A stretch of DNA of 64,000 nt from Firmicutes bacterium UBA4881 (lineage in GTDB: Bacteria > Bacillota > DTU065), in assembly GCA_002399235.1 (NCBI GenBank), contig DHDH01000040.1, forward strand, positions 18,592-82,591. The letters run 5' to 3'. Under the pieces are notes generated by a model. The model did not search any database. It was not told the DNA's origin and saw only the letters and a program-made list of their open reading frames with translations. Positions 5,628-58,055 of this stretch are shown here, piece by piece; the first letter of the stretch is position 1, and each line of letters begins with the position of its first letter. The translations under genes were made by a program, and so were the position numbers.

Positions 5628-5691
5628 ATTGACAATTACTAATTTTTTCGGGTAAAATGAAGAAAGATTGCGGAGCAATTCTAAGGAGGGA

Positions 5692-7176
5692 ATGGCTTTG
5701 GCTTTAATGTCCAAACTTCGTGCCAATACTAAAGTCTTGTTTTTAGTATTAGGAATTATTCTTGTTTTAGTTACAGTTGCGGGTTCGTTTGCAGCTATTA
5801 GTTCGGGAAACAAAGCCCCATCGAAATATGTGGCTGAGGTTAATGGTATCAAATTAGAAAGAGAAGAATTTGAGCGGAATTTTTTCTTTGAATGGCAAAA
5901 TCAAAACCAGATGAATTACGGTCAATTAACTGGTATGGATCAAGAACCAATGAAGACTCAGTATTTGGTTAATATGCTTTTAAATGAAGCCCTCCTTGAT
6001 GAAGCCAAGAAGTTAAAACTTGACGCCACCAAGGAAGAAGTTGCTGAAGAATTAAAGAAAGTTGAAGAATCTGTTGGAGGCGCTGATGAATTACAAGCTC
6101 GTCTTGAAATGGTTGGCGTTTCAATTGATACATTAAACAGAGATATCAAAAACTCTTTGATATTTCAAAAGCTAGCCGAACATCTTACTAAAGATATAAC
6201 TATCGCTGACGATGATGTTCGCACTCAGTTAGAAGAGGTTAAAGCCAGTCATATTCTTGTCGAAGACGAAGAAACGGCTAAAGATCTCTATGCTCAACTA
6301 CAAAATGGTGCCGACTTTGCTAAATTAGCAAAAGAAAATTCCACTGATCCTGGTTCCAAAGATGAGGGCGGTGAGTTAGGCTTTTTCACTCGCGGTTCTA
6401 TGGTAGCTGAGTTCGAAACTGCTGCTTTTGCTTTAAAACCAGGCGAAATTAGCGAACCTGTTAAGTCTCAATTTGGTTGGCACATTATTAAGGTTGAAGA
6501 TAAAAAGAGTCCCACAGACGCAGAATTTGAAGAAAAGAAAGCCACCGCTAGCGAGGAGCTTTTAAATAAGAAAAAGACTGAACGTCTTATTGCTTACCAA
6601 AATGAGGTTAAGGGCAAAGCTAAAATTAAGATTTTTGATCCTCAGCTAAAAGCACGTTATGAATTGAACGAAGGCAAAATTGAAGAGGCAATCAAATCTT
6701 ATAACGAAGCTATTAAGAGTAAACCAAGTGATCCATACCTTTATGCTTCCTTGTCAGAAGCATATCACCGCAAAGGTGATTTAGACAAAGCTTGGGAGAA
6801 TATCTTAGAAGCTTCAGCTAAGTCCAATGATGCTGCCATTAAGATGAATTTGGCTATGTTAGGCCAAGTTAAGATGCAAAATATAGTTAACGCTAAGGAA
6901 ACCGAAGAAGAAAAGAGTTCCCAAGAATGGGCTAATGAAGATGAAAATATAAAAGCTATCTATGACGATGTAATTAAAGCTTTAGACGAAGCTGCAGCAA
7001 CTAACGAAGGCGACTTATGGTCCCATTTACAGATAGCTCAGATGTATAATTCTTTCGGTGAGAAAGAAAAAGGTCAAGCGGAAATGGACAAAGTAAAGGC
7101 TCTTGCCGAGAAGTTACAACAACAAAGTGGTGAAGAGCAAGACAACGAAACTACTGAAGAACAACCTGCAGAGTAA
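5692..7176 (+). CDS. Membrane-anchored PpiC/parvulin-type peptidyl-prolyl isomerase with C-terminal TPR-like region (PrsA/SurA-like)
   Basis: N-terminal TM segment [17 protein letters not shown]. Parvulin core ASHILV...GGELGFF...[10 protein letters not shown]. Start is ambiguous (ATG 5692, TTG 5698 or ATG 5707) after AGGAGG at 5684-5689. Confidence 0.8.
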
Positions 7177-10367: not shown

Positions 10368-10591
10368 AAAAGGAACCCCTGCTGTGTACGTAGTCAAGCT
10401 GACAGTGTTATGAGCCAACACACTTTGATAGGGAGCCCGGACGTTTTGTTGTGGCTGCCAAGCCGTATGGCTTTGCTTAAATAACAAACAGGGCACCCAC
10501 CTGCTTTAGCAGGTTCATCAACATTCAGCGCCAGCGGCATGGCGGGGACCTTAATAAAATGGGAACCGGTAATACGGTTCCTGTTTTTTTT
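10368..10591 (+). ncRNA. ssrS: 6S RNA (SsrS/BsrA-like) with its intrinsic terminator
   Basis: GC-enriched non-coding block between aspS and tcdA. The 5' AAGGAACCCCUGCUG can pair with the 3' CAGCGG..GGGGACCUU (about 185 nt apart). Further pairing: GCUGA/UCAGC and UGUUAUGA/UCAUCAACA. There is an apical AAGCC-guau-GGCUU hairpin and a 3'-bubble hairpin CCUGC-uuua-GCAGG. Terminator GGAACCG-gtaata-CGGTTCC plus T8 at 10562-10591. Same position as bsrA in B. subtilis, as I recall it. Confidence 0.65.
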
Positions 10592-30330: not shown

Positions 30331-30783
30331 GTTTAAATGTCTCATATGGATTTATGGCGACCTAGATAAAATGAAAGTTTGCTGAGGGTTAGCTTTTGTG
30401 CTACACGAGGCAAATGAGGTATGTCTAAATAGTTGGATTAAAAGTGCCAAGTTAACACGACCTCTATTCGCTGGATGTGTAAAGGAAGTTTTGCTAGATA
30501 ATTTGGCTTTATTCTTTGGTGATGCTGTTAGATGTATGATAAGTGTGCATAAGGTGTACGCTTTCAAAATTCTTCCATGAAAAAGAAGTAGATAGTTTAG
30601 TATGATTATCAACTTTAGAAGGAGAAATAATTGCACTGACGAATAATAAAAGGGAGGTTTTATACTACCACGTATGAAACCGATTGCAAAGCAATCTATG
30701 TAATTTAGAGGAGGGGTATTACGAGAAAAAGTAAGGAGTGGGGTTATATGGTGAGATTTCATTTGAATAAGGGGGATGTAAAA

Positions 30784-32322
30784 ATGAAAAACAAATCTTT
30801 GGTATGTGTTTTGGTTTTAGCATTGTTATTAACAGCAATGCCAGCTTTAGCTGTAAATGTCAATGTAGGTGGAGAAGTTAACTATATTTTTGTTGCTCCT
30901 ATTAGTACAAGAAAACCAAGTGCTAGTTCAAATTCAGAAATTAAATATAGTTTTAACACAACTATAGACAAAAAGTGGTTTTTAAAGGTAGATTATAATT
31001 TGAGTTTTTCAAAAAAAACACTTGATGAAGCTGCAAAGCTTAAACCTGAAGAAAGGATTTACATCGACACTTTTGTAGATAAAATTGAGATTAAGTATGC
31101 TGATAAAAATTTGAATTTTGCAGCGTATAAGAACCCAGGTGGAAGTATAGGTGAACTAAAAGACACACATAACTTGCTAGTATTTCCTACACCGTGGGGT
31201 GATCCTAACGGATATATGTTGAGAGGATCAGCAAAACCATTTGGTGTTAATATTGATTGTCAGGTTATTGATTCTGGTTGGTATGCATCTGAAATGAATG
31301 GTTTTTATATTAGAGGTAGTGCAGATATCAAAGGAAATACTTTAAATATTGCTGGTCGTACAATCAATGGTGAAAAAGGCGTATTTGATCTATATCAAGG
31401 TGCTTTACATGGTGCTATTCCTATAGGTAAGTTGAAATTGGAACCAGGAATAGGTTTGACTCAGAGAAATGACAAGAAAAAAGACAATATGGCCTTTGGT
31501 ATTAAACTTGCTGGACCTGTTGTTAAGGATCTTGAAATCGATGTCTCGACAAGATTAAGTCAAGCTAATTTTGAAAGTCGCTATTTTAATGGGGACTATT
31601 CAGAGCAAAAAGCTGCTGTGACATGGAAAAAAATGCTTAAAGTATCTGGAGAGCTTGTTGGTCCATTATCAGATTGGAAAACTCGTACTCTAACTCTTAA
31701 TACTGAGTGGAGAAATAGCACTTCAAATAACGATTTTGCTAAGCAGTTTGAAGCTGATAAATACTATACAAATAACGACTTTGGTCTAGGCTTAAAATAC
31801 ATTAGAGATAAAAAAAGCGAAGCAGATAATCCTGAAAACACTATTTTAGTAAGAGGTACTACTCCAGTATTGCCAAAGAAATTATGGGTATTAGGCAGTG
31901 CAACTTTAGTTGAAGACAAAGATTACCTAGAAAAAGGTATCTATACATCAACTAAAAAAATCAATACTTCGTTAAAAGCACAAGCAAAAGTTATTCCGAA
32001 GGTAACTATGGATGGCTACTTTGATTACAAAAAGGATCTTGACAGTAAAATAAGTGGTGAACCAATTAAAGTTGAATCAGGGGCTTTAGGACTTAGTGCA
32101 AAGTATGACTTTAATAATACGGTTTCAGTTGGCGGGAAGTATGAAATTAATAGTAACCGTTTTGGTGAAGGAAACACTGTTTTAGATACTGTTGGAGCTA
32201 ATTGGCTAATAAAGACAAGCGATAACGCTAAGTTTGAAATGGGATATCTTCGTACAAGAAATCTGCTAGAAAAAGAACCAACTAATCATTTGGTTTCTGC
32301 TGCTATTAAGTTGAAATTCTAA
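30784..32322 (+). CDS. Secreted porin-like outer-membrane beta-barrel protein (hypothetical)
   Basis: ATG 30784 lies after GGGGGA. Signal peptide MKNKSLVCVLVLALLLTAMPALA. Long run of alternating amphipathic strands. C-terminal ...VSAAIKLKF. Confidence 0.55.
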   Translation: MKNKSLVCVLVLALLLTAMPALAVNVNVGGEVNYIFVAPISTRKPSASSNSEIKYSFNTTIDKKWFLKVDYNLSFSKKTLDEAAKLKPEERIYIDTFVDKIEIKYADKNLNFAAYKNPGGSIGELKDTHNLLVFPTPWGDPNGYMLRGSAKPFGVNIDCQVIDSGWYASEMNGFYIRGSADIKGNTLNIAGRTINGEKGVFDLYQGALHGAIPIGKLKLEPGIGLTQRNDKKKDNMAFGIKLAGPVVKDLEIDVSTRLSQANFESRYFNGDYSEQKAAVTWKKMLKVSGELVGPLSDWKTRTLTLNTEWRNSTSNNDFAKQFEADKYYTNNDFGLGLKYIRDKKSEADNPENTILVRGTTPVLPKKLWVLGSATLVEDKDYLEKGIYTSTKKINTSLKAQAKVIPKVTMDGYFDYKKDLDSKISGEPIKVESGALGLSAKYDFNNTVSVGGKYEINSNRFGEGNTVLDTVGANWLIKTSDNAKFEMGYLRTRNLLEKEPTNHLVSAAIKLKF

Positions 32323-32349: not shown

Positions 32350-32895
32350 ATGAAAAATAAATTTAAAAGCCTAATTTTAGTAACTCTTCTTGGAGTTATA
32401 ATTTTAACATTGTCAGGTTGTTTATTTAAGCCATCAGAGGGTGGAATTATATCAAGTGGAAGGCCCTACGAATATTTCAACTTTACTGTGCGTAACGATT
32501 ATACTGATACCAATAACGTAGAATTAACAGATGGCAAGACTGGTGATTATAGTGATCCTGGTGATGGTCCATGGGTGGGTCTTTGGAAAGGTGAAGAAAA
32601 AGAGATGCCAGGCACTGTTGTAATTGATCTTGGTAAAGCTCAACAGATTAGTTCTGTAAGTGCTTATTTCTTAAATGGTTCTTGGGGTATAAACGTTCCG
32701 GCGAAAATGGAAGTTTATGTCTCTAATGATGCAAAGACCTGGGATGGTCCATACACTTATGAGCCAGGTTCTATTACTGGAAAAGTAGGTGTTTGGTATA
32801 GTGCATCAGTGAATAAAGTTGGGCAGTATGTCAGATGCGACATGTTCTTTAATGGCGCCAATATTTGGGTTAGTGAGATTACTGTTATTCAATAA
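32350..32895 (+). CDS. Lipoprotein with discoidin (F5/8 type C)-like carbohydrate-binding domain
   Basis: Lipobox LTLSGC. Pattern LTDGKTGD...WVGLW...VVIDLG...ISSVSAYF...VYVSNDAKTW... Confidence 0.6.
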   Translation: MKNKFKSLILVTLLGVIILTLSGCLFKPSEGGIISSGRPYEYFNFTVRNDYTDTNNVELTDGKTGDYSDPGDGPWVGLWKGEEKEMPGTVVIDLGKAQQISSVSAYFLNGSWGINVPAKMEVYVSNDAKTWDGPYTYEPGSITGKVGVWYSASVNKVGQYVRCDMFFNGANIWVSEITVIQ

Positions 32896-34927: not shown

Positions 34928-35211
34928 AATCGCAAAGACTGTGAAAGGGGAAAGTACCTTTTGATGGACTTAATAGAGAGCTGGGGTGGGTGGAAACCTA
35001 GCAGGAAATCATAAGCGAAGTTCTCCCTGGAGTTGCTTAGCTGAAGTAAGTAGGCTAGGACGGAAACTTCTACCGTTAAAAAGAAGCAGGTATCGGCTAT
35101 ATTTGACGATTGTATGTCATCGCCCGCACCTGATAAAGAGGGCTATATTTATAGCCAATTAGGGTGGTACCGCGAGTAAACCTCGTCCCTGTGGGGATGA
35201 GGCATTTTTTT
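34928..35211 (+). promoter_or_regulatory. T-box riboswitch leader (probable Phe specifier)
   Basis: AGAGAG box and GGTGGGTGGAAACC distal region. Canonical T-box sequence AATTAGGGTGGTACCGCGAG at 35157-35176. Terminator CCTCGTCCC-tgtg-GGGATGAGG plus T7 at 35181-35211. UUC sits in the expected specifier position (GCGAAG-UUC-UCCC). Confidence 0.8.
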
Positions 35212-44609: not shown

Positions 44610-45063
44610 TATATTAAAAGTACCTAAAGTATTTTATGAGTTATAAATGATTATTTAAAGGGAACCAAAGGTCGAGTGCACTCTATGTTTTAGCTGTGCC
44701 AAAGACCTTGGTTCCCATAAATTTCGTCTTTTTTCTAGTAGCTACACTTTGTTGGTTAAGGTTAAGCCAATCGAAGCTTAACAACTATCAAGATAGGCTA
44801 TATAAATGAGTAGATGATCAAAAAAGCTATACCCCTTCCAAAGCAATATGGACTACTCCAGTTGTCTGTGGTACTTTGTTTTTTGTAAATAAAGCATATT
44901 TCTAGGACCACTTTTGTTATCTTTTCTTAGGTAAAAAAAAGGCATCGCTAATAGGAAAGAGAATAATTACCTATTGGCACCCAAGAAATGGAAATTTCAA
45001 GGTGTAGAAATTTTCTGCTTGGTCATTATAGGTATGTGCCCATTATTTTAGGAGGTGAGAAAA

Positions 45064-46110
45064 ATGGATTTAGCTCAATTATTAAAAGATCTTTCCGAGA
45101 GCAGTGGTGTCTCGGGATATGAGAATATGCCAGCAGATATTATTACCAAAGCTTGGTCAGAGCTAGCTGACGAAGTTAGAAGAGATGCTCTAGGGAATGT
45201 CATTGCAGCAAAAAAAGGCAAAGGACACGGAAAACTTCTTTTAGCAGCTCACATAGATGAGATCGGTCTGATGGTAAAAAAGATCGATGAAAGGGGTTTT
45301 ATTCGTTTTGCCACTGTAGGTGGTTTTGATTTCCGTACTTTAGTTGCTCAAGAGGTTATAGTACATGGAAAGAAGCAACTTAAGGGAGTTATAGGTGCTA
45401 AACCACCTCATCTGCAAGCACCAAATGAACAAAAGAAAGCTTATCCAGAAGACGAATTCTATATTGATGTAGGCCTTACAGCGGACAAGGTTAAAGAACT
45501 GGTACGCATTGGAGACATGATCACTATAGAAAGAAAGGTACAACAACTAGCAGGTTCTCGTTATGCGGGTAAATCCTTTGACGATCGCGCTTGTGTAGTG
45601 ATGCTAACAGCATGTCTTTCTAGATTAGCTGAAGTTAACCACAACCTTGATGTCTACTTAGTAGCTACAGTTCAGGAGGAAGTAGGTACTAGAGGAGCAG
45701 CTGTTGCTGCTTATGGAGTCGATCCTGATTTAGCCATAGCAGTGGATGTTTGTCATGGTGAATTCCCGGGTGTAAGAGCTGATCGTGGTTTTAGCTTAGG
45801 TAAAGGTCCGGTTATTAGTATGGGACCTGATACACATCCTAAGATTTTAGATAAACTCAAAGAGATAGCTGATGAGGCCAAGATTTCCTATCAACTAGAA
45901 GCTTCTACTAGTGCAGGAGGGACAGATGCCTGGAGTATCCAAGTGGCCAGAGCTGGGATTGCTTGTACTTTAGTATCTCTGCCTCTACGTTATATGCACA
46001 CATCAGTAGAGACATTGGATCTGGCTGATATTAAAGAAGGCGGGCGTCTTCTCGCTGAATTTGCCTTGAAGGCAGATCGCCAGTTTGTGGAGGGATTGCC
46101 ATGTTTCTAA
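45064..46110 (+). CDS. M42 family metallo-aminopeptidase (TET/FrvX/YsdC-like), paralog 1
   Basis: ATG 45064 lies 9 nt after AGGAGG. Contains AHIDEIG, FDDRA and VQEEVGTRGA motifs. Confidence 0.88.
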   Translation: MDLAQLLKDLSESSGVSGYENMPADIITKAWSELADEVRRDALGNVIAAKKGKGHGKLLLAAHIDEIGLMVKKIDERGFIRFATVGGFDFRTLVAQEVIVHGKKQLKGVIGAKPPHLQAPNEQKKAYPEDEFYIDVGLTADKVKELVRIGDMITIERKVQQLAGSRYAGKSFDDRACVVMLTACLSRLAEVNHNLDVYLVATVQEEVGTRGAAVAAYGVDPDLAIAVDVCHGEFPGVRADRGFSLGKGPVISMGPDTHPKILDKLKEIADEAKISYQLEASTSAGGTDAWSIQVARAGIACTLVSLPLRYMHTSVETLDLADIKEGGRLLAEFALKADRQFVEGLPCF

Positions 46111-47126
46111 AAGAACTAAGCGAAGCTAGTGGCATATCTAGCCGAGAGCAAGAGATAAGGGATCTGATAAGAGAGTATGTAAAGCCTAATGTAGATGAGG
46201 TATTTACTGACTCTTTAGGCAATCTTTATGCTGTAAAAGGCAAAGACAAAGTAGGTCCCAAAGTAATGCTAGCAGCTCACATGGATGAAGTTGGCCTAAT
46301 GATTACCAATATCGAAAAGAACGGTCTCTTGCGGTTTAGTCCTGTAGGTGGAGTAGACCCTAGAGTTTTAGTATCCAAGCCAGTAGCTATTGGGAAAAAT
46401 AAGGTGATTGGTGTAATTGGTGCTAAAGCGATTCACTTGCAAAGACCAGAAGAAAGAAGTCAAGTTTTAGGTTATGACGACCTTTATATTGATATTGGTG
46501 CTAGTGATGACGAAGAAGCTAAAAAACTAGTTAAAACCGGCGATGTGGTAGTTTTTGCAACTAAGTTTCAAGAATTAGGTGATCTTCTTCTAGGTAAAGC
46601 ATTTGACGATCGAGCTGGGTGTACAGCGTTAATCGAACTGACTAAATGTGAATTCGCTTGCCCTGTTTACTTTGTTTTTACAGTACAAGAAGAAGTTGGA
46701 CTAAGAGGAGCTGGTCCAGCTAGCTACCGAGTTGCACCCGATGTAGCACTTGTATTAGAAGGTACCACAGCTTCTGATGTAGGTGAAACAGACGAAGCTA
46801 ACTATTCAACTACCTTAGGTGAAGGACCAGCAGTTACGATTATGGATCGTTCGGTTATATCACACCCGGGTGTAGTTTCGATGCTATTTAAATTAGCAAG
46901 AGAAAATGGTATACCTCTACAAATGAAGCGTACAATCACTGGTGGGACTGATGCAGGTAAGATTTCCCTTAGTCGTGGAGGCGTCCCTACTGCGGTAATG
47001 GCTGTACCTTGCCGCTATATACATTCACCAGTTACGGTTATGAATTATAACGACCTACAGCATATGGTTAAACTAGCAGAAATCTTTGTGCAGGAGATTG
47101 CTCAAAAAGGGGTGGAGTTGTCATGA
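46101..47126 (+). CDS. M42 family metallo-aminopeptidase, paralog 2
   Basis: AHMDEVG, FDDRAG and VQEEVGLRGA motifs. Overlaps the upstream stop by 10 nt. Confidence 0.88.
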   Translation: MFLKELSEASGISSREQEIRDLIREYVKPNVDEVFTDSLGNLYAVKGKDKVGPKVMLAAHMDEVGLMITNIEKNGLLRFSPVGGVDPRVLVSKPVAIGKNKVIGVIGAKAIHLQRPEERSQVLGYDDLYIDIGASDDEEAKKLVKTGDVVVFATKFQELGDLLLGKAFDDRAGCTALIELTKCEFACPVYFVFTVQEEVGLRGAGPASYRVAPDVALVLEGTTASDVGETDEANYSTTLGEGPAVTIMDRSVISHPGVVSMLFKLARENGIPLQMKRTITGGTDAGKISLSRGGVPTAVMAVPCRYIHSPVTVMNYNDLQHMVKLAEIFVQEIAQKGVELS

Positions 47127-48103
47127 AAGAGCTATTAGAAAAGCTGACTCAAGCTTATAGTCCTTCCGGATCAGAAAGAAGTATCCGTGAGATAATAAAA
47201 GCCGAACTAGCTAACTATGAAACTAAAACCGATGCTCTCGGTAACTTAATAGTTGAGAAAAAAGGTAACGGTAAGAAGATAATGTTTTCGGCTCACATGG
47301 ATGAGATCGGCATTATGGTGACCCACATCGATAAAGAAGGATTTTTACGCTTTGATTTTATCGGTGGTGTCGGTGCCTATAATTTACCAGGTGAGCGAGT
47401 AAGATTTGCTAATGGCACTTTAGGTGTTATTAGTGTGGAGAAACTAGACAAGATCGGTGACTTAAAACGAGAAAGCCTTTATATCGATATCGGGGCGGAA
47501 TCTAGAGAAGAAGCAGAAAAGCTGGTTAAAGTTGGCGATAGTGCTGCTTTTATCTCACCCTTTATTGATCTTGGTAATAGAGTTGTTTCTAAGGCTATGG
47601 ACAATCGATCTGCCTGTACAGTTTTGGTGCAACTTATGAAAGAACTCCCAGAAACAGACAACCATATCGTTGCTGTTTTTAGCGTGCAGGAAGAAGTAGG
47701 TCTTAGAGGTGCTACAACAGCTGCTTTTTCTGTAGCGCCAGATTATGGTATGGCTATTGATGTTACAGCTACTGGTGACACTCCTAAAGGACTCACCATG
47801 GAGGTTGGTTTAGGTAAAGGTGCAGCTATTAAGGTCAAGGATCGTTCTATTATGGTTCATCCTTATGTAAAAGAGAAGCTAATAGAATTAGCTGAAAAGA
47901 ATAACATTCCCTACCAAATGGAAGTCTTGGAGTTTGGTGGTACAGATGCAGGTGCTATTCACCTGAGCCGTTCTGGTGTACCATCTGGAGTACTATCAAT
48001 TCCTTGTCGTTATGTACACAGCCGTTCGGAAATGATCGATTACCGGGATTTGGAGGCAGTGCTCAAGCTAGCTAAAGCGTTTGCTGGAGCTGATCTCCAA
48101 TGA
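47123..48103 (+). CDS. M42 family metallo-aminopeptidase, paralog 3
   Basis: AHMDEIG, MDNRSA and VQEEVGLRGA motifs. ATGA overlap with the upstream gene. Confidence 0.88.
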   Translation: MKELLEKLTQAYSPSGSERSIREIIKAELANYETKTDALGNLIVEKKGNGKKIMFSAHMDEIGIMVTHIDKEGFLRFDFIGGVGAYNLPGERVRFANGTLGVISVEKLDKIGDLKRESLYIDIGAESREEAEKLVKVGDSAAFISPFIDLGNRVVSKAMDNRSACTVLVQLMKELPETDNHIVAVFSVQEEVGLRGATTAAFSVAPDYGMAIDVTATGDTPKGLTMEVGLGKGAAIKVKDRSIMVHPYVKEKLIELAEKNNIPYQMEVLEFGGTDAGAIHLSRSGVPSGVLSIPCRYVHSRSEMIDYRDLEAVLKLAKAFAGADLQ

Positions 48104-49920: not shown

Positions 49921-49994
49921 TGGAGGATCGTCTAGGGGTAGGACAGCGGGTTCTGGCCCCGCCAGCGAGGGTTCGAATCCTTCTCCTCCAGCCA
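49921..49994 (+). tRNA. tRNA-Gln (anticodon CUG), CCA encoded
   Basis: Hand-folded cloverleaf. Acceptor TGGAGGA/TCCTCCA, D stem GTCT/GGAC, anticodon stem GCGGG/CCCGC with loop TTCTGGC, T arm GAGGG-TTCGAAT-CCTTC, then GCCA. Confidence 0.85.
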
Positions 49995-50003
49995 ATAATT
50001 AAT

Positions 50004-50079
50004 GGCCCCATCGTCTAGTGGCCTAGGACACCGCCCTCTCACGGCGGTGACAGGGGTTCAAATCCCCTTGGGGCTACCA
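50004..50079 (+). tRNA. tRNA-Glu (anticodon CUC), CCA encoded
   Basis: Hand-folded cloverleaf. Acceptor GGCCCCA/TGGGGCT (G1-U72), anticodon stem CCGCC/GGCGG with loop CTCTCAC, T arm AGGGG-TTCAAAT-CCCCT, then ACCA. Confidence 0.85.
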
Positions 50080-50637: not shown

Positions 50638-50680
50638 ATAGCCCCTCGGACTTAATTTAAGTTAGGGGCTTTATTTTTGA
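50638..50680 (+). terminator. Intrinsic terminator after ppa
   Basis: ATAGCCCCT-cggacttaatttaagtt-AGGGGCTTTAT followed by TTTTG. Confidence 0.75.
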
Positions 50681-50922
50681 AGATGTAGTATAAATAACTT
50701 AGGATAAACTATTCCTGCTTACCTTGCCTAACTAAACTTCTTCTTAGGTAGTTTAGTAAGGTTGTTTAACCTTACTAAATAATGTATTCTAAAATAAAGT
50801 GATAAAAAAATTTTCCTCTGCTCCCCGAAAAGGCAGAGACATTTTGCTTGTTTGTAGCTTGAGCTATTAAGTACAGAAATTAAAGTTAAATTGAGGTAGA
50901 TAGAAATAGGGAGAGATAGCTT

Positions 50923-52095
50923 ATGCAAAGACACTATTTATTAACTATACTTCTTGTTTTATCTTTGACGGTGGCTGTAGCAGGGCAGAATCGAGTTGCT
51001 GTATTAGGTGTGTTTGGCGAAGCTCCCTTAAACTATAAGCAATTTTTAGAAACACGTATAACCAAGGAACTTGTTTCTCTTAACCGTTTAGAAGTACTAG
51101 ATCGAACTCATGCCGAGCAGCTTTTGAAAGAAATTTCGTTTCAAGTAGCTTTAGGTGAGAATTCTGTTGGTGTTGGTAAAATGCTTGGAGCCGATATTGG
51201 ACTTTTAGCAACTATAGATCTACTTTACACAGAAGAAAATGAAAATACCTTTAATACTAAAGCAGAAATAACTTTAAAAACTGTAGAGATTGCAACAGCG
51301 AGGATCTTAGCAACTGCTACAGTTAAAGGTACAGCCGAAGCAAATTCCTTAGCTAGTGCTGAGATTATGGCTTTGGAGAATTGCCTTCTAGAAACCAATG
51401 CTACCCTTTATTCTCTATTTGGATTAACCAGTGAAATATTAGAAGTGAAAGGAAAAGTTCTTTATATTTTACCAGGTAGAGAAGCTCTTATTAACGGAGG
51501 AGTTTATAGTGTTATTCGTACTGAAGAAATTAAAGGTCACCCAATGGAGAGGGAGATTGGTAAACTACGTTACGAAGAAAGCAAAGATCTATCACGTGGT
51601 ATTGTTTTAGCAAAAACCGAAGAGATCTTAGAAAAAGACACAGTTGGCCATCTCAAAGCCAGATCAGGAAACTATCGGCTCTATTCGTTAGGGACTTTAG
51701 AAGGTCTAAAAGGTGGTTTAAGTTACTGGATAATAAAACCTTTTGAGTTAAGTTTTGGTGCTTTGGTTAATCTTAATATAGCTAAACCAACAAATTCTTT
51801 AGAATTGTATTTAGAAGTAGATAAAGAATTTGCTCTATCTCCCAATAACTACAGTGGAGTAATTGGGGCTGGTTTTGGAGGGGCTTGGTTAATCCAAAAA
51901 CTAGTAGATAAAAAGTATTTTGGTAAAAGTTTACTTTTTACAGGCAAGATAGGAATTCGTTTTTATAATACTACTAAAATGTACGAATTGGCCCTCGAAC
52001 CACGCCTTCCTTTGGTAACAAATTGGTCCGAAAGTGTTAATATCAAAAACAACCCTAGTTTATGGCTTACTCTAAGTTGGGGTAGTGTTGAGTGA
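50923..52095 (+). CDS. Envelope operon ORF1: secreted CsgG/LpoB-like domain + small beta domain + putative C-terminal beta-barrel
   Basis: Signal peptide MQRHYLLTILLVLSLTVAVAG with no lipobox Cys. NRVAVLGVFGE...LEVLDRTHAEQLLKEISFQ...LGADIGLLATI...TARILATATVKG. C-terminal Gly/aromatic alternating strands. Confidence 0.5.
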   Translation: MQRHYLLTILLVLSLTVAVAGQNRVAVLGVFGEAPLNYKQFLETRITKELVSLNRLEVLDRTHAEQLLKEISFQVALGENSVGVGKMLGADIGLLATIDLLYTEENENTFNTKAEITLKTVEIATARILATATVKGTAEANSLASAEIMALENCLLETNATLYSLFGLTSEILEVKGKVLYILPGREALINGGVYSVIRTEEIKGHPMEREIGKLRYEESKDLSRGIVLAKTEEILEKDTVGHLKARSGNYRLYSLGTLEGLKGGLSYWIIKPFELSFGALVNLNIAKPTNSLELYLEVDKEFALSPNNYSGVIGAGFGGAWLIQKLVDKKYFGKSLLFTGKIGIRFYNTTKMYELALEPRLPLVTNWSESVNIKNNPSLWLTLSWGSVE

Positions 52096-52110
52096 AAGTG
52101 AGGACTGCCT

Positions 52111-53355
52111 ATGAGAAAGTATCTAGCAATTATATTAATTGGGATCTTTATCATCTTACCTTTGGCTTTAGCCCAAGAAAGACCCCGAGTAGCTGTGTTA
52201 AGTAATTCTTATTCTAACTGGTCTGGATATGACCGTGAACTAGAAGCTAAGCTAACTGATCTACTTTTTAGCCTCGATAGATTCGAATTAGTTGAACGCC
52301 GCTATATTGATAATGTTTTAAAAGAACAAGCTTTACAACTATCATATGGTAGTCCAGATACTATAATAAGGGCGGGTCGCTTATTAGGAGCTACATATGG
52401 TTTTGTTATTCAACTTGATAATATTAATACAGTTTGGAGTAAAGATAGTTACAAAGCTGAGATAAAACTTTCTGTAAAATGTGTGGAGATTGAGACTGGT
52501 AAAATTATTGGTGCTAAACAAGCTAATGGTTATGGTTTTAACCGCTCAACCGATCTTGCGATCAGTGAAGCTATAGAAATGATCTTTTTAGAAGACCTTA
52601 CACCTGCAATCAAGAGCTGGTTTCGATTAGGTAGTTCTATTGTTAGTAGAAGTGATAATTTTGTTTATATAGCTTTAGGCCAAAACGCAGGTGTGAAAAA
52701 AAATTCTCGGTATTTAGTTTTCAAGGAAGTTGATTTAGGTATAGAAACACAAAGTCCAATTTTAGAAGAAGTGGGACTAGTTGAGATAAAAAATAGCGGT
52801 TATGATTGGGCCCAAGCTGTTATATTAAAAGAAAATGAACCGATAAAAGCTGGGTTTATAGTTTCTGAACAGGTTTTAGAAAACTATAAACTATTTAGTT
52901 TTAGTGGTGTCATAGGCAAGAACCCTGGTTTAGAAGTTTCTTATGGGTTTTACCGCCCTTGGAGCCATATGGCTAATGTTAGCGTTATTTTCGAAGCGTC
53001 GCCACAAATTTTAAATACTATTGTTGTGACAGAATATCTCAAGGAATTGCGTTTTACCAATAATCTCTCTCTATTCATTGGTGGTGGTTTGGGTTCTTCG
53101 TTAGGTACTCAAAGCGATCTTTCAGGATCTAGTATTAACTCGCTTTCTTATCTAGCCAATGGTCGAGGAATATTAAAATTAACTCTAGGAGATAGTTACG
53201 ATTTTCGGGTTGGCGCAGCATACTTTTTAGCTACAACTTATAATAATTGGTATTATGATTATTCGAAGATACCTGTTCCTAACTATAGGGTTACAGCTAA
53301 AGAATATAACCCGAGTGGTCTCAGACTTAATATAGGCATTTCCTTTTCTTTTTAG
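52111..53355 (+). CDS. Envelope operon ORF2: paralog of ORF1 (CsgG/LpoB-like + beta domain + C-terminal beta-barrel)
   Basis: Signal peptide MRKYLAIILIGIFIILPLALA. RPRVAVLSNS...FELVERRYIDNVLKEQALQ...LGATYGFVIQL...TGKIIGAKQANG. Ends ...GLRLNIGISFSF (aromatic terminus). Confidence 0.5.
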   Translation: MRKYLAIILIGIFIILPLALAQERPRVAVLSNSYSNWSGYDRELEAKLTDLLFSLDRFELVERRYIDNVLKEQALQLSYGSPDTIIRAGRLLGATYGFVIQLDNINTVWSKDSYKAEIKLSVKCVEIETGKIIGAKQANGYGFNRSTDLAISEAIEMIFLEDLTPAIKSWFRLGSSIVSRSDNFVYIALGQNAGVKKNSRYLVFKEVDLGIETQSPILEEVGLVEIKNSGYDWAQAVILKENEPIKAGFIVSEQVLENYKLFSFSGVIGKNPGLEVSYGFYRPWSHMANVSVIFEASPQILNTIVVTEYLKELRFTNNLSLFIGGGLGSSLGTQSDLSGSSINSLSYLANGRGILKLTLGDSYDFRVGAAYFLATTYNNWYYDYSKIPVPNYRVTAKEYNPSGLRLNIGISFSF

Positions 53356-53466
53356 GGTAACCGAATTGTGAATGATCTGTCATACTTTAGTAAGATCTCT
53401 AGCTAATATTCGCTAAACCATTCTTTGTTACTCCATCTGGAAGGGGGGAAAGAATCATCGTTGGCG

Positions 53467-54372
53467 ATGGTTCTCATTAACATGAAAAAAATTGTTATTT
53501 TGCTTTTAATAATCAGCTTAAGTGTTACTCTTTTTGCTAATTCATTACCTACAGGCTATCTAATCGAATCACATACTAGCTACAATGGTTCTATTAACTG
53601 GACTAAGCAAGATGTCGAAGTTATTGGTTATGGGGCTTTAATTGTCTCTCCAGATAGACCCTATTTCCAAGCAAAGTTGATGGCCAGAGAGGCAGCTAAA
53701 ACAGATGCATATAGGAATCTGGCTGAGATGCTTAAAGGTATTTATGTAACTTCAGAAACTACAGTACTAAACTTTATTACCGAAAATGATTTTGTACGAA
53801 AAAAAGTTGAGATGTTTATTCAGGGAGCAGAAATTATTGAAGAAAAAGAAATTGAAGGCGGTGGCTACGCAGTTAAACTTAGGTTAGCTTTAGGTGGACC
53901 TAAGGAAGGGAATATCGCCTCTGTACTCCTGCCAGAAGTTGCTAAAAACGATAGCGATGTTTTAACAACTAAAATTCAGTTTGGCTCAAATTACGAAGAA
54001 AAGCCTACCTATCAGGTACCTAAATCTACTAGCGATGTAACAGGAGTTATTATTGATGCTAGAAATTTAGAAGTAAGACCAGCCATGAGCCCTAAGATTT
54101 TTAGCTCTGACGGTAAAGAAGTCTTTGGCCCAAGGTATATTGATCCCTATAAAAATCCTGACTCACCTTTAGTCGCTTACACCAGGGATTTGGAAACAGC
54201 TAGATCATTGGCTCGCGTAGGCGAAAATCCAGTTATAATAAATGCAATTGGCGTGGTTGGGACTAATCAGAGTGATGTGGTTATAGCTAAAGCAGATGCG
54301 GATATTATTTTTGACCAAAACAAGCTAGGTGGCTTTTTAGCAGAAGGTCGTATTGTTATTATAATCAAGTAG
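53467..54372 (+). CDS. Envelope operon ORF3: secreted LPP20/FlgP-like domain protein with unknown C-terminal domain
   Basis: Signal peptide (MVLIN)MKKIVILLLIISLSVTLFA. YFQAKLMAREAAKTDAYRNLAEMLKGIYVTSETTV...GAEIIEEKEIEGGGYAVKLRL. Start uncertain (TTG 53461, ATG 53467 or ATG 53482). Confidence 0.45.
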   Translation: MVLINMKKIVILLLIISLSVTLFANSLPTGYLIESHTSYNGSINWTKQDVEVIGYGALIVSPDRPYFQAKLMAREAAKTDAYRNLAEMLKGIYVTSETTVLNFITENDFVRKKVEMFIQGAEIIEEKEIEGGGYAVKLRLALGGPKEGNIASVLLPEVAKNDSDVLTTKIQFGSNYEEKPTYQVPKSTSDVTGVIIDARNLEVRPAMSPKIFSSDGKEVFGPRYIDPYKNPDSPLVAYTRDLETARSLARVGENPVIINAIGVVGTNQSDVVIAKADADIIFDQNKLGGFLAEGRIVIIIK

Positions 54373-54383
54373 GGGGGGTTCCT

Positions 54384-55499
54384 TTGAGACTAAAAAAACT
54401 ACTTGCTGTTTTATTGGTTATATTGTTGGTAATACCTCAAGGAGTGTTAGCTCAGTCGCAAACGAACACCGATCATACAAAAAATGTCTTGATTGTAGCA
54501 GGAACAGTCACTGTGGTAGGACTAAGTGTTTATTTATATAATTCTGTTAAAACAAACCTAGAAGTTAAAAAACTTTACAATGACGCCGAAGAGAAAATTG
54601 TTCAAGGTGATTGGTTTGGAGCTTACGAAAAATTAAATCTCATTATGCACAAAAAGCATAATTATAAAGACGCTAAGAGTAAACTCGAGTTGGTTAAAGA
54701 AGTAGGTGCAAACTACTACACTGACCTTGGGGATAGACAAGTTGTAGAACAAAGATTGGAAGAAGCTGCCCTTAATTATCGTAAAGTTTTAATGATGAGC
54801 CCTAATAATTTAAGAGCTAGAGCTGGATTAGATAACTTAAATAGTAGACTAGCAGATATGTATTATAATCGGAGCTTGGGCTACTTTAGCGAAGGTGACT
54901 TTAAAGAAACAGAGCTAGAGTTAAATAAAGCAGTTGCCCTAAACCCAGATATGGATAAAACTTTATTAAAAGAAGTTCTAGCAATAAATCAAAACCAAAA
55001 ACTAACTAAAGTAGCTATCATTTTCCTAGGTAATCAAAGTTCAGTTTCTGGCATTGAAGCTATTATCATGCCGCGGTTGCAAGAATTTTTAGAACGGGAC
55101 AACTTGATTGTCCTCTCTCAACTAAAAGTGAGAGCATTTATGGATGAGCAAGGAAAGTATCTCTTTCCAACCTATGATACAAAAGCGGCTGTTGAAACTG
55201 GCCTTATATTAGGTCAAGATAAAGTCATTTATGGCGATCTAACTAAATCTCAGTTGACTCCTTTCAAAAAGCAAACTGGGAATAAGTTGCAGCAAAGTTT
55301 AACAGGGGAATTAGAATTTAAAATTAACATCGTTGATGTTAAAGCGACTACAATTCAAACAGAACATTTTCGTTATAAAGAAAGTGTAACTAGTACAGTT
55401 ACACCACTAGAAGCTGCTGTAACTGAGAATATGATGCTCCAGGAACTTTTACAAAATATCTCGCAAAAACTAGCTAGGGATATAGCAAGGAGGCTATAA
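54384..55499 (+). CDS. Envelope operon ORF4: signal/TM-anchored TPR protein with C-terminal CsgG/LpoB-like domain
   Basis: TTG start 5 nt after a G7 SD. MRLKKLLAVLLVILLVIPQGVLA plus a second hydrophobic segment VLIVAGTVTVVGLSVYLY. TPR-like YNRSLGYFSEGDFKETELELNKAVALNP. KVAIIFLGN...LIVLSQLKVRAFMDEQ...LGQDKVIYGDL. Confidence 0.45.
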   Translation: MRLKKLLAVLLVILLVIPQGVLAQSQTNTDHTKNVLIVAGTVTVVGLSVYLYNSVKTNLEVKKLYNDAEEKIVQGDWFGAYEKLNLIMHKKHNYKDAKSKLELVKEVGANYYTDLGDRQVVEQRLEEAALNYRKVLMMSPNNLRARAGLDNLNSRLADMYYNRSLGYFSEGDFKETELELNKAVALNPDMDKTLLKEVLAINQNQKLTKVAIIFLGNQSSVSGIEAIIMPRLQEFLERDNLIVLSQLKVRAFMDEQGKYLFPTYDTKAAVETGLILGQDKVIYGDLTKSQLTPFKKQTGNKLQQSLTGELEFKINIVDVKATTIQTEHFRYKESVTSTVTPLEAAVTENMMLQELLQNISQKLARDIARRL

Positions 55500-55503
55500 G
55501 CTT

Positions 55504-56583
55504 ATGCGAAAGCGTCTTTTACTGGTATTAATAATTTCCATGCTTTCTTTAGTTACTTTAGCCAATGAAGGACGCTGGATCGAAGCTAAAGGTGTTGCTA
55601 TAGTTATAGATAATCAGAAAGAGCTGGCTTATGAAGCAGCACTTAAAGATGCCTTAAAAAGAGCTGTAGAAACTGGAGTCGGTGTCTATGTGTCAGTCGA
55701 GACTAAGACTGAGAATTTTGCTTTAATATCGGACTCTATTTTGACCAAAGCTAATGGCTACGTAAAAGAATACACTGTGTTGAATACTAGCTTTACAGAC
55801 GATTACTGCCAGGTATTGCTAAAGGCTTGTGTAAGCCTTACTGATCTTAAAAATGATCTACAGGCCCAAGGGTTGATGATCAAAAGAGCCGGAGACCCGC
55901 GAATTATTGTCCAAATCGAAGAATATTCAGATGTTTCTTATCTTTCTACCTCTGTAGCCCAGGAAGTTGCTGAAAAAGCCTTGAAAGATAGAGGTTACAA
56001 CGTAATTAAATCGAGACCATTAGAGCAATATTTAGCTTACAAGACTAGAGAAGATGAATACTTAAAATTAGTTGATGCAGATATTTTAGTTAGAGGGAAT
56101 GCAACTGCTACAAGGTTATCAAGTATAGGTGGTATGTTTTCCTATGGTTCAACTGTTGTACTTAGTGTTTATCGGAGTGGTTCTCCACAGATCCTAGCTT
56201 CGGTGACAAAAAATGGTAGAGGTATTCATGTTTCTCCTCAATTAGCTACTGAACTAGCCATTAAGGAAGCTTTGAGCTCTGCCATTGAGGAGTTGAGCTG
56301 GGAAATTCTTACTAGTCTAACTGAACCTATAAAAAGGGTGCAACTTAAGGTCTTAGAGTTAGACTTTGCTCTATATAGCCAACTTTCTAGTAACTTACAA
56401 AGAATAAGTGGTGTTTCTCAGGTCTTTCCACGTAGTTATAGGAATGGAGAGGGGCTTTTTGATATTGACACAACTCAATCTTCAATGGCGATCGCTATTT
56501 ACTTAAGTAAAAACTTAGGTTGGGAAATTATCAGGCATACTGAAAATATTATTGAAACTAAGGTTGTTAAAACAAACAATTAA
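55504..56583 (+). CDS. Envelope operon ORF5: secreted FlgT-like protein (LPP20-like N domain + CsgG-like middle domain + C-terminal alpha/beta domain)
   Basis: Signal peptide MRKRLLLVLIISMLSLVTLA. WIEAKGVAIV...AYEAALKDALKRAVETGVGVYVSVET...NGYVKEYTVL. DPRIIVQIEE...VAEKALKDRGYNVI...DADILVRGNATA. Confidence 0.45.
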   Translation: MRKRLLLVLIISMLSLVTLANEGRWIEAKGVAIVIDNQKELAYEAALKDALKRAVETGVGVYVSVETKTENFALISDSILTKANGYVKEYTVLNTSFTDDYCQVLLKACVSLTDLKNDLQAQGLMIKRAGDPRIIVQIEEYSDVSYLSTSVAQEVAEKALKDRGYNVIKSRPLEQYLAYKTREDEYLKLVDADILVRGNATATRLSSIGGMFSYGSTVVLSVYRSGSPQILASVTKNGRGIHVSPQLATELAIKEALSSAIEELSWEILTSLTEPIKRVQLKVLELDFALYSQLSSNLQRISGVSQVFPRSYRNGEGLFDIDTTQSSMAIAIYLSKNLGWEIIRHTENIIETKVVKTNN

Positions 56584-56656
56584 CATTACAATAACTATGG
56601 GTTTAATTAATATTTTACTGGATCGAAGGGAGGTCGAGCGGTATTACCGCTAAAAC

Positions 56657-57217
56657 ATGAAAAAAAATAAAGCTTGGATTATTGTACTGGCAGTCTTAGT
56701 TATTATGTTGTTAGGGACAATAAGCAGTTATAACAAACTTGTTAATCTCAGTGAATCAGTTGATGCTCAATGGGGACAGGTGGAAAACCAGTTACAATCC
56801 CGTTATGATAAGATTCCTAATCTTGTAGCTACTGTTAAAGGTTATGCTAACCATGAAAAGGAAGTATTTGAATCATTAGCAGATGCTAGAGCTAAAATGG
56901 CCGGTGCTCGTTCTATAAATGAACAAGTTGAAGCAGCTAATGCAATGGAATCTGCTCTATCAAGATTATTGGTTGTTGTAGAGAACTACCCTGAATTAAA
57001 AGCAGATCAACAATTTAATCAGTTAATGTATGAGATTTCCGGCACTGAAAATAGAATAGCAGTAGAAAGAATGCGTTATAATGATTCTGTAAAGAGCTAC
57101 AACAGTAGAGTCAAACGCTTTCCTACAGTGATGTTAGCTAATATGTTCGGCTATGAACCTAGAGCTTACTTTGAAGCTGCCAAGGGTGCAGAGGTAGCGC
57201 CTAAAGTGGAGTTTTAG
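56657..57217 (+). CDS. lemA: LemA family protein
   Basis: N-terminal TM segment. YNKLVNLSESVDAQWGQVENQLQSRYDKIPNLVATVKGYANHE is classic LemA. Confidence 0.88.
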   Translation: MKKNKAWIIVLAVLVIMLLGTISSYNKLVNLSESVDAQWGQVENQLQSRYDKIPNLVATVKGYANHEKEVFESLADARAKMAGARSINEQVEAANAMESALSRLLVVVENYPELKADQQFNQLMYEISGTENRIAVERMRYNDSVKSYNSRVKRFPTVMLANMFGYEPRAYFEAAKGAEVAPKVEF

Positions 57218-57275
57218 GAATCTAGGTAAGATGGAGGTTAGTAAAGAAGTTAAAACTCTTTACTAAAGCAAGACT

Positions 57276-58013
57276 ATGAAAAAATTGGTTATGGTCCTTT
57301 TAGTGTTACTACTATCTTGTGGAGTATTAGCACTAACACCGCTACCTTTTACAAATATTCATGACTATGCCCATCTTCTTGGTAATACCAGAGATTTAGA
57401 TCAGCGAGTAGAAACATTATACGAACACACAGGTGTCGAATTAGCTATTGTAACAATAGCTAAATTAGAGAATCAAAGCATAGAGATGTTTTCTGTTAAT
57501 CTTTTTGAAGAATGGGGCATCGGCAGAAAAGGTGAGGATAAAGGTCTATTACTAGTCATTTCTCTTGACCCACGCGAAGTTAGACTAGAAACAGGTTATG
57601 GGTTAGAAGGGGCTTTACCTGATTCTTTTGTGGGGACTAAGTTAGATGAACTTGTTGCACCATCTCTCGCTAGGGGTAGCAATGAAGGACTAATTGAATT
57701 TGTTAATGCTATTGAAGAAAGAATTATTAGCCAAGGCGATGCTAATCCCCAAGCTAATTTTTATCTTGAATATGATTCAGATGATTCCATGGTAACTTCG
57801 ATTACTCGTTTGCCTTTTGCGAACTTAGGGTTTATAATCATCATCCTAATCTTAATCTTTCTCGATTTAAGATTCACTGGGGGTATGGTTTTAAGAAGTA
57901 TTCTCCGTGCCTCTGGTAGAGGTTACCGCTCTGGCGGAGGTGGATCATCTGGCCGTAATCGCTATGGTGGTGGAGGAAAAAGTGGTGGCGGTGGCGCCTC
58001 GACTAAATGGTAA
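57276..58013 (+). CDS. TPM-domain protein (YgcG-like) with TM segment and Gly-rich tail
   Basis: Possible lipobox LLLSCG. VELAIVTI...FEEWGIGRKGEDKGLLLVISLDPREVRLETGYGLEGALPD. TM LGFIIIILILIFL. GGGGSSG...GGGKSGGGG tail. Confidence 0.85.
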   Translation: MKKLVMVLLVLLLSCGVLALTPLPFTNIHDYAHLLGNTRDLDQRVETLYEHTGVELAIVTIAKLENQSIEMFSVNLFEEWGIGRKGEDKGLLLVISLDPREVRLETGYGLEGALPDSFVGTKLDELVAPSLARGSNEGLIEFVNAIEERIISQGDANPQANFYLEYDSDDSMVTSITRLPFANLGFIIIILILIFLDLRFTGGMVLRSILRASGRGYRSGGGGSSGRNRYGGGGKSGGGGASTKW

Positions 58014-58015
58014 AG

Positions 58016-58055
58016 TAAGAGCCTACAAAACACAGCGTAGGCTCTTTTTATTTCT
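58016..58055 (+). terminator. Intrinsic terminator closing the envelope operon
   Basis: AAGAGCCTAC-aaaacacagc-GTAGGCTCTT followed by TTTATTT. Confidence 0.8.

Follow-up and report, generated by a model that had tools for sequence, protein, structure and literature searches.

Around the polar sheathed flagellar motor of Vibrio, FlgT, FlgP and FlgO build the H-ring, a set of concentric rings tied to the outer membrane in which FlgT forms a 26-mer and the lipid-anchored FlgP and FlgO rings are 58-fold in situ. TsaP, which is associated with the type IV pilus secretin, surrounds an outer-membrane pore as a ring protein of the periplasm. FlgP is also a component of the Campylobacter basal disk, and its β-hairpin insert, which forms the ring β-sheet, has been linked to ring formation (Drobnič et al., PMC12222027). 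Here, we describe five consecutive genes, O1 to O5, which encode relatives of such proteins and lie in a 64,000-nucleotide stretch of contig DHDH01000040.1 of Firmicutes bacterium UBA4881 (the window, meaning this stretch at its full length). With a confidence somewhat above even, we propose that they encode an accessory, non-flagellar periplasmic scaffold which is anchored in the outer membrane. The open reading frames (ORFs) of the locus are as follows, in window positions:

50923–52095, + strand: O1, 390 amino acids (aa)
52111–53355, + strand: O2, 414 aa
53467 or 53482 to 54372, + strand: O3, about 296–301 aa (the ORF opens at TTG 53425)
54384–55499, + strand: O4, 371 aa
55504–56583, + strand: O5, 359 aa
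56657–57217, + strand: O6, LemA
57276–58013, + strand: O7, TPM-domain lipoprotein with a C-terminal transmembrane segment and a Gly-rich tail

Seven same-strand ORFs were found between 50923 and 58013, one fewer than the eight counted in the initial annotation, and the successive gaps from O1 to TPM measure 15, about 111–126, 11, 4, 73 and 58 bp. For O3, relatives have been annotated with the start that corresponds to ATG 53467; this codon or ATG 53482 is likelier than TTG 53425. A hydrophobicity scan detected a hydrophobic N-terminal segment in all seven products, in agreement with the signal peptide or membrane anchor that had been proposed for each. A lipobox Cys is absent from the signal peptides of O1, O2, O3 and O5; TPM has one (LLSC).

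Domain composition of O1 to O5

The initial annotation had read O1 and O2 as carrying a CsgG/LpoB/FlgT-middle fold, O3 as containing an LPP20/FlgP-like module, O4 as an anchor followed by TPR repeats and a CsgG-like module, and O5 as FlgT-like, with LemA and a TPM-domain protein downstream. These readings were essentially borne out by profile and structure searches. Two further domains had been missed, namely a C-terminal β-barrel-like domain in O1 and O2 and a Tp0624-like domain in O3.

O5 scores above the cut-off of Pfam FlgT_N (36.4 bits, cut-off 28.8), with no match to Pfam FlgT_M or FlgT_C. Its AlphaFold2 model, based on an alignment of 60 sequences, has a mean predicted local distance difference test score (pLDDT) of 76.9. 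Searched with Foldseek, the model best matched FlgT of V. alginolyticus (3w1e, E 2.4e-11, 377 columns) and, at E 2.9e-11, the FlgT of the Vibrio LPHT ring structure (8z5n), with about 360–377 columns aligned in these two matches; CsgG, PelC, GNA1162 and LptE came next, all of them on the middle domain. The O5 family profile also matched Campylobacter FlgP (9hmf_C) at 2e-4. Behind its signal peptide, O5 has an SHS2/FlgP-like domain at the N-terminus, a CsgG/PelC/LpoB-like one in the middle and an α/β domain at the C-terminus. As a side observation, O5 gives a weak match (E 5e-8; 32 bits, cut-off 400) to the NCBIfam model of LipL46, a lipoprotein of Leptospira, which suggests, at the level of sequence profiles, that LipL46 may belong to a broad FlgT_N-containing superfamily.

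O3 falls just under the cut-off of Pfam LPP20 (24.6 bits against 25.9, E 3.6e-5). Using phmmer, the single sequence was matched to C. jejuni FlgP (9hmf_C, 2.7e-6) and Vibrio FlgP (2e-4), and the pairwise alignment of O3 with FlgP runs through the β-hairpin insert with only one gap of a single residue. A family profile of 34 proteins strengthened both matches (E 2.2e-18 for 9hmf_C and E 6e-9 for Vibrio FlgP). The C-terminal half of the same profile matched residues 131–262 of Tp0624 from T. pallidum (5jir_B, E 1.4e-12). O3 begins with a signal peptide that lacks a lipobox, continues with a FlgP/LPP20 SHS2 domain including the hairpin insert, and ends in a Tp0624-like C-terminal domain. The latter, which in the O3 family is conserved over many phyla, carries the motif GLIIDARGLGxRPAMxPKIxDExG.

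O1 and O2 are paralogs (BLASTP, 27% identity, E 1e-19). O2 exceeds the Pfam CsgG cut-off (24.0 bits against 20.8), with the match covering profile positions 36–150 of 210 only; O1 stays below the threshold (E 0.12), and its entire length can be aligned with the O2 family. An HMMER scan of 1.84 billion representatives yielded 269 relatives of O2, several of which, 430–500 aa long, align end to end. In a 21-member alignment of the family, 16 members matched CsgG, six LpoB and one FlgT_C. For O2 itself, membership in LpoB is below the cut-off (Pfam, 12.6 against 22.3 bits; NCBIfam TIGR02722, 19.7 against 110.6). When searched against the PDB, the family profile matched TsaP (3jc8, E 2.5e-4) on the middle domain. 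The AlphaFold2 model of O2 (four sequences in the alignment, pLDDT 63) was matched by Foldseek best to FlgT 3w1e (E 1e-8, 284 columns) and then to CsgG (E 1e-4). None of the cassette proteins was matched to FlgO, be it as a family or as a chain: in Pfam, at E up to 1, O1 and O2 gave only CsgG and LpoB, and the O2-family search of the PDB, which was expected to include the FlgO/FlgP ring entry 9YDS, gave no FlgO.

O2 consists of a signal peptide, a CsgG/LpoB-like domain (about 26–170), a FlgT-C/TsaP-like small β domain (about 175–255) and a region from 258 to 414, in which the model places eight long strands (258–413). Gly, Ser, Tyr and Phe are abundant in this last domain, hydrophobicity alternates strongly along its final strand GLRLNIGISFSF, the protein ends in GISFSF, and most O2-family relatives end in F or L. 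In O1, the signal peptide is likewise followed by a CsgG/LpoB/FlgT-M-like α/β domain, then by a small β domain and, at the C-terminus, by a β-rich domain; the protein ends in LSWGSVE, i.e., without a terminal aromatic residue. The C-terminal part of both proteins is probably an 8-strand outer-membrane β-barrel, a prediction from model and sequence which we regard as moderately supported. Transmembrane hairpins of the CsgG type were not detected in O2, and the CsgG match ends before the second hairpin region. Read by eye, the core strands of O2 lack alternating hydrophobicity, and the membrane domain would be the separate C-terminal β region.

O4 combines a signal-peptide-like segment, a hydrophobic stretch (33–53), TPR repeats (about 60–200) and a CsgG/LpoB-like domain (about 205–325). 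The TPR matches lie just under the Pfam cut-offs (best TPR_2, 26.3 against 27 bits, E 6e-6). The C-terminal half (205–324) was aligned by hhalign with the CsgG-like family profile at a probability of 94.6% (E 7e-8), and the hidden Markov model of the O2 family matches the O4 ortholog of another lineage (L248) at 5.7e-10. O4 and its orthologs (e.g., L248:13499-14590) share a cleavable-looking signal peptide (VxA, with cleavage before Q) and a second, membrane-grade hydrophobic segment within the next 10–20 residues.

Extent of the cassette

LemA and TPM both match their Pfam families (7e-59, 198 bits and 6e-29, 101 bits, respectively). A scan with LemA returned three related Bacillota metagenome-assembled genomes (MAGs; L169, L170 and L171) whose pyrophosphatase is 77–82% identical to that of the window. 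In all three, LemA–TPM directly follows the pyrophosphatase gene and O1–O5 are absent. L169 has the gene order of the window, with three M42 peptidases, MtnP, MtnA, pyrophosphatase, LemA, TPM, YgjP (in the opposite orientation), DUF4855, GerA and GerAC, and L170 and L171 match this order from the M42 genes through TPM (MtnA was not detected in L171). Because these syntenic relatives possess LemA–TPM without O1–O5, the latter (about 50.7–56.6 kb) are best described as a five-gene cassette which is present or absent as a block, and LemA–TPM as its older neighbor. This behavior in close relatives had been missed in the initial annotation. Of 80 LemA loci, drawn from archaea and many phyla of bacteria, 71 have a TPM homolog (in 39 cases starting at most 1.5 kb from the LemA end) and none has a homolog of O1–O5. 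Judged by synteny, LemA–TPM is a separate, ancestral two-gene module and not part of the cassette. The block-bearing relative with 52% identity (L164) and the block-less L169 are about equally distant from the window; the block may have been gained or lost.

The elements bounding the cassette and its leader are:

50641–50680, + strand: intrinsic terminator of the upstream pyrophosphatase gene and left boundary of the unit; a hairpin followed by UUUAUUUUU
50752–50779, + strand: perfect palindrome of 28 nt (12+4+12) in the 242-nt leader 5′ of O1, candidate operator or leader hairpin
56564–56592, + strand: promoter-like site TTGTTA-17-TACAAT for LemA–TPM, likely right boundary of the cassette, with its −35 element in the last codons of O5
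58017–58055, + strand: intrinsic terminator after TPM, between convergent genes; a hairpin followed by UUUUUAUUU

Both flanking terminators, which had been proposed initially, are real hairpins with a U-run. The left one (segment 50634–50684) folds at −16.7 kcal/mol (z −3.2) and the right one (segment 58012–58058) at −14.8 kcal/mol (z −4.6), and in neither case was any of 200 shuffled sequences as stable. A scan of the + strand between them revealed no convincing internal terminator, again as previously stated, and the two longer spacers, O2–O3 and O5–LemA, fold no better than their shuffles. A single 7-kb operon with LemA–TPM in one unit with O1–O5, as the initial annotation had it, is nevertheless doubtful. 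The promoter-like site upstream of LemA is conserved in the block-less L169, L170 and L171, and LemA–TPM probably has its own promoter; this evidence for separate transcription units comes from prediction only.

The leader palindrome, TTTAGTAAGGTT-GTTT-AACCTTACTAAA, has a folding energy of −15.8 kcal/mol (z −4.75), and a promoter scan placed a promoter-like site (50766–50795) across part of it. In a relative with 89% identity (L001), one T-A pair is changed to C-G and one A-T pair to G-T, so that pairing is kept. The palindrome could be an operator or a leader hairpin of O1; a search of Rfam with the O1 leader gave no match, and hence no riboswitch or known leader. Each edge of the O1–O5 block carries a copy of the 9-mer AAGGTTGTT (50758–50766 and 56560–56568). 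Its right copy coincides with the −35 region of the LemA promoter, and the block-less L169 has one copy. The two copies may be the footprint of an insertion or deletion, or may have arisen by chance. Marks of a mobile insertion in the form of long flanking direct repeats or a clear anomaly in GC content were not seen at the block (GC 35–38% in the block, 41–42% upstream and 34–40% downstream).

Conservation of linkage in other genomes

Relatives with 89% identity keep all seven genes and their flanks, and the 52% relative L164 keeps the order pyrophosphatase-O1-O2-O3-O4-O5 up to the end of its contig. A second lineage of Bacillota is represented by three GTDB species from anaerobic digesters; a single-protein scan with P0126 returned three genomes. 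This lineage encodes orthologs of O2, O5, O3 and O4 (E 1e-25 to 1e-37), in the order O2-O5-O3-O4 and in an unrelated neighborhood; neither LemA/TPM nor a flagellar gene was recorded at this locus. A single-protein scan of the GTDB genomes with O5 found no relatives, but an alignment-based scan did and revealed O5-like genes at 80 loci. The titles of the genomes name Nitrospirota, Desulfobacterota, WOR-3, Planctomycetota, Calditrichota, Gemmatimonadota, Marinimicrobia, Thermotogota and MAGs labeled as Bacteroidota.

Neighbors were counted where the sequence extends for 5 kb or more to each side of a distant O5-like gene, which is the case at 35 loci. Within 5 kb of the O5-like gene, an O3-like gene was present at 23 loci, a CsgG-like gene at 19 and both at 16. 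Twelve loci have a gene for a TPR lipoprotein of 380–430 aa between the O3-like and O5-like genes. This is the position of O4, which in other phyla is taken by TPR(+SLH) lipoprotein genes; at the one locus examined in detail, this positional equivalent contains TPR and an SLH domain. A lipobox is found in the TPR partner at 12 of 12 loci and in some O3-like proteins of distant phyla, but in none of the Bacillota O1–O5. Among 123 neighboring ORFs from 14 distant loci, a Pfam scan detected FlgT_N nine times, TPR_2 eight times, CsgG and LPP20 seven times each, SLH and FecR five times each and GNA1162-like domains three times; flagellar families were not among the top 25. No LemA or TPM gene adjoins the module at the distant loci. 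The linkage of CsgG-like, LPP20/FlgP-like, TPR and FlgT-like genes, whose absence among relatives would have refuted the proposal according to the initial annotation, extends over two Bacillota lineages and further phyla.

Additional genes accompany the module at distant loci (L002–L004, L032 and others), namely those of FecR-domain proteins, CHASE2 guanylate/adenylate cyclases, GNA1162-like (DUF799) and DUF4384 proteins and a TPR+SLH lipoprotein. These neighbors hint at a signaling link, which is absent from the window. The Nitrospirota version of the module adjoins MlaEFD. In the O2 family, one gene (P0133; L254/L255, a Bacillota MAG) is divergent from the adjoining gene of a 688-aa TPR-SpoIID protein. 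Word-index searches for homologs returned seven matches for O5 and three for O2; the lineage is, therefore, poorly sampled.

Genomic context and host envelope

Among the scanned window ORFs of at least 120 aa, no flagellar, curli, penicillin-binding protein (PBP) or secretion-ATPase family was detected, the former result being in line with the initial annotation; a flagellar or curli context is missing from the related loci as well. Neither the cassette nor the window contains csgA/B (curlin repeats), csgE or csgF, and a reading of the locus as a curli locus was ruled out by these missing genes. The window carries markers of spore-forming Bacillota, i.e., CdaA-CdaR-GlmM together with GerA and GerAC, the spore germinant receptors already noticed in the initial annotation. 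Its aspartyl-tRNA synthetase is at most 62% identical to that of any GTDB representative, with mixed phyla among the matches; the assignment to Bacillota is supported by the above gene context and by the related Bacillota MAGs.

The ORF at 30748–32322 (524 aa) has a signal peptide, a sub-threshold match to Porin_4 (E 0.005) and the C-terminus AAIKLKF, and is a candidate outer-membrane β-barrel. It is followed by a small F5/8 type C (discoidin) protein (32350–32895), and the pair is also found upstream in a relative (L166). Together, the barrel-like C-termini of O1 and O2 and this porin-like ORF are suggestive of a host with an outer membrane. A 502-aa protein (5668–7176) with a SurA-like N-terminal domain, a parvulin peptidyl-prolyl isomerase domain and TPR repeats may be a periplasmic chaperone, which would be relevant to the question of a diderm envelope. 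Other features of the window are a 6S RNA gene after aspS (10373–10552), a T-box leader (34932–35193) ahead of the genes for DAHP synthase and prephenate dehydratase, three tandem M42 aminopeptidase paralogs followed by MtnP-like and MtnA-like genes (45055–48103), kept in all relatives examined, and two tRNA genes (49921–50076) between mtnA and the pyrophosphatase gene.

A periplasmic scaffold as the favored explanation

The initial proposal of an uncharacterized complex associated with the outer membrane stands in its general idea; the membership of LemA–TPM and the eight-gene operon are not supported. In the arrangement which we favor with the slightly better than even confidence given at the outset, O1 and O2 would sit in the outer membrane by their small C-terminal β-barrels and present CsgG/FlgT-M-like and FlgT-C-like domains to the periplasm. 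These barrels would replace the N-terminal lipid anchors that homologous CsgG-type, FlgP and FlgO lipoproteins have in bacteria with the Lol system. Such an exchange agrees with a study that reported Lol to be all but missing from Terrabacteria and their outer-membrane machines to lack lipoprotein subunits (10.1101/2021.05.31.446380). O3, with its FlgP-like and potentially ring-forming hairpin region, and the FlgT-like O5 would oligomerize under the outer membrane, and O4, held by its hydrophobic N-terminal segment, would bridge or organize the assembly. The product might be a brace or platform on the periplasmic face of the outer membrane, which may link the membrane to the wall or surround a pore. 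All functional statements on O1–O5 are drawn from homology and gene linkage.

Several observations weigh against this scaffold. By standard topology rules, the signal peptide and the second hydrophobic segment of O4 would place its TPR and CsgG-like domains in the cytoplasm, at variance with the periplasmic homologs. The model of O2 is only moderately confident, and the O2 family profile gave no sequence match to a solved β-barrel in the PDB. Ring formation by O3 and O5 is extrapolated from their homologs, and the cassette in the window encodes no partner pore, substrate or wall-binding domain. The absence of flagellar genes is known for 64 kb of the genome only. Neither partner lies within 5 kb of the O5-like gene at nine of the 35 distant loci, mostly in Planctomycetota, and several members of the O2 family (e.g., P0148 and P0160) are singletons with unrelated neighbors and without the partners.

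More speculatively, and with doubt on our side, O1–O5 might represent a widespread, undescribed non-flagellar periplasmic ring machine with FlgP-like, FlgT-like, CsgG-like and TPR components, ranging from Nitrospirota, Desulfobacterota and WOR-3 to diderm Bacillota. It would be an independent relative of the flagellar H-ring and basal-disk proteins, which may even have evolved from it. In diderm Bacillota lacking Lol, its lipid anchors would have been swapped for fused β-barrels, a second example, after OmpM, of attaching periplasmic structures to the outer membrane. If true, the ring-building folds of high-torque flagellar motors and of the curli pore would also form a separate, widespread envelope module, which bears on the origin of flagellar outer rings by co-option of a pre-existing scaffold. 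The barrel-fused counterparts of lipoproteins are candidates for fixing periplasmic structures to the outer membrane without lipoproteins in diderm Bacillota, and the close relatives with and without the cassette offer a natural comparison for studying its function.

Alternative explanations

Instead of a scaffold, the cassette might encode an export gate, in which a CsgG/PelC-like periplasmic ring, the TPR protein and the barrels secrete a fiber, a polysaccharide or a lipid, comparable to curli CsgG (type VIII secretion) or to PelB-PelC. The CsgG matches of O2 and of most of its family, PelC and PelBC among the structural matches of the O5 middle domain, and the combination of TPR, PelC-like fold and barrel, which echoes PelB/PelC, are all consistent with this. 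Furthermore, distant modules hold a bona fide CsgG (E 1e-40) followed by FecR, and a CHASE2 cyclase in Nitrospirota; CsgG-FecR-cyclase neighborhoods have been described for curli loci of the alphaproteobacterial type (PMC9599517). Export is nevertheless unlikely, in our estimation: the cassette has no CsgA/B, CsgE, CsgF, glycosyltransferase or other gene of a substrate pathway, the CsgG match of O2 is confined to the α/β core, whose strands do not alternate in the manner of transmembrane strands, and the cassette as a whole is missing from relatives, with no pathway evidently linked to it. In addition, about 8 strands (about 155 aa) are predicted per barrel, and eight-strand barrels such as OmpA, OmpX and PagP are of a size that suits anchors and not polymer channels.

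A displaced flagellar set is quite unlikely as well. According to this explanation, O3, O5 and O1/O2 would be the FlgP, FlgT and FlgO-type parts of an H-ring or basal disk around the LP-ring of a flagellum encoded elsewhere. The FlgT_N score and best structural match of O5 and the similarity of O3 to the solved FlgP of both Campylobacter and Vibrio agree with it, and accessory genes of Campylobacter-type motors are not all located in flagellar loci. From the diderm Firmicute Acetonema, a FlgP sequence has even served as a search query (Chaban et al., PMC5758724). On the other hand, no flagellar gene is found in the window, at the locus of the second Bacillota lineage or in the top families of the 14 distant loci, and the close syntenic relatives lack the whole cassette. 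O3 has its extra Tp0624-like domain, and O1 and O2 carry a barrel and no FlgO match. Moreover, the module is present in MAGs labeled as Bacteroidales, Bacteroidota and Lentimicrobiaceae (L046, L050, L061, L064). Bacteroidota are not known to have flagella.

It is improbable that O1–O5 form no ring at all and that their LpoB-like, TPR and Tp0624-like domains regulate peptidoglycan synthases or hydrolases or tether the outer membrane to the wall, possibly in sporulation. LpoB is the second-best family for O2 and appears in six of its 21 aligned relatives, an SLH wall-binding domain is found on positional O4 equivalents in other phyla, one O2-family gene lies beside the TPR-SpoIID gene, the host is a spore-former, and the deposited entry of Tp0624 assigns it to the OmpA family. 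However, LpoB scores well short of its threshold, the cassette of the window encodes no PBP, hydrolase, SLH or OmpA-C domain, and FlgP/FlgT-type domains with a ring-associated insert would be left unexplained.

Finally, a seven-gene operon with LemA and TPM as subunits of the same envelope complex, as first proposed, is rejected as very improbable: the common strand, the gaps of 73 and 58 bp, the lack of an internal terminator and the arrangement kept in the 89% relatives are outweighed by the syntenic relatives with LemA–TPM at the same place and no O1–O5, by the promoter-like element upstream of LemA which is conserved in these relatives and retained here, by TPM at 71 of 80 LemA loci and never with O1–O5, and by the second Bacillota lineage and all distant loci, which have no LemA/TPM beside the module.

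Comparison with known systems

In the source databases, these proteins are named only as "hypothetical", "CsgG/HfaB family" or "FlgT N-terminal domain-containing". A literature search found no description of a non-flagellar FlgP/FlgT/CsgG/TPR cluster, and searches on CsgG/DUF799/DUF4810 and on the function of LemA–TPM likewise returned none of an O1–O5 system.

The Vibrio H-ring shares with the cassette the three-domain FlgT architecture (O5), a FlgP homolog (N-terminal domain of O3) and FlgT-M/C-like domains (O1 and O2), and all of the proteins are exported to the envelope. Unlike the H-ring genes, the cassette has no flagellar context, and partners such as FlgH/FlgI or MotX/MotY are missing. 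In contrast to the small lipoproteins FlgP and FlgO, O3 lacks a lipobox and has an added Tp0624-like domain; O1 and O2, with their 390–414 aa and β-barrel-like C-terminus, do not match FlgO, and the TPR/CsgG-like O4 is an addition. FlgP of the Campylobacter basal disk (9hmf) is the best sequence match of the O3 family and aligns nearly without gaps through the β-hairpin insert. It is, however, a 171-aa lipoprotein encoded together with flgQ, whereas O3 has about 300 aa in two domains, lacks a lipobox and is encoded beside FlgT-like and CsgG-like genes.

With the fold group of CsgG, LpoB, PelC, GNA1162, LptE and TolB-N, the cassette shares the α/β core, which is present in O1, O2, the C-terminal half of O4 and the middle domain of O5, and distant modules include bona fide CsgG and GNA1162-like lipoproteins. 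In contrast to curli CsgG, the match is limited to the core, with no hairpin region detected, no lipobox and no CsgA/B/E/F, and the predicted anchor is a fused barrel. TsaP resembles the O2 family in the middle small β domain, which matches both TsaP (3jc8) and FlgT_C; only this one domain is shared, the cassette has no LysM domain, and no secretin or pilus genes are nearby. Leptospira LipL46, weakly matched by O5, and T. pallidum Tp0624, matched by the C-terminal domain of O3, are likewise envelope proteins of non-model diderms. The LipL46 score is only 32 bits against a cut-off of 400, a single Tp0624 domain is shared, and an OmpA-C domain is missing here. O6 and O7 are ordinary members of the LemA–TPM pair in their usual adjacency, and the pair also occupies the same locus in relatives without O1–O5. 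Overall, the folds of O1–O5 are already known from these systems, and the assembly of the five genes is not.

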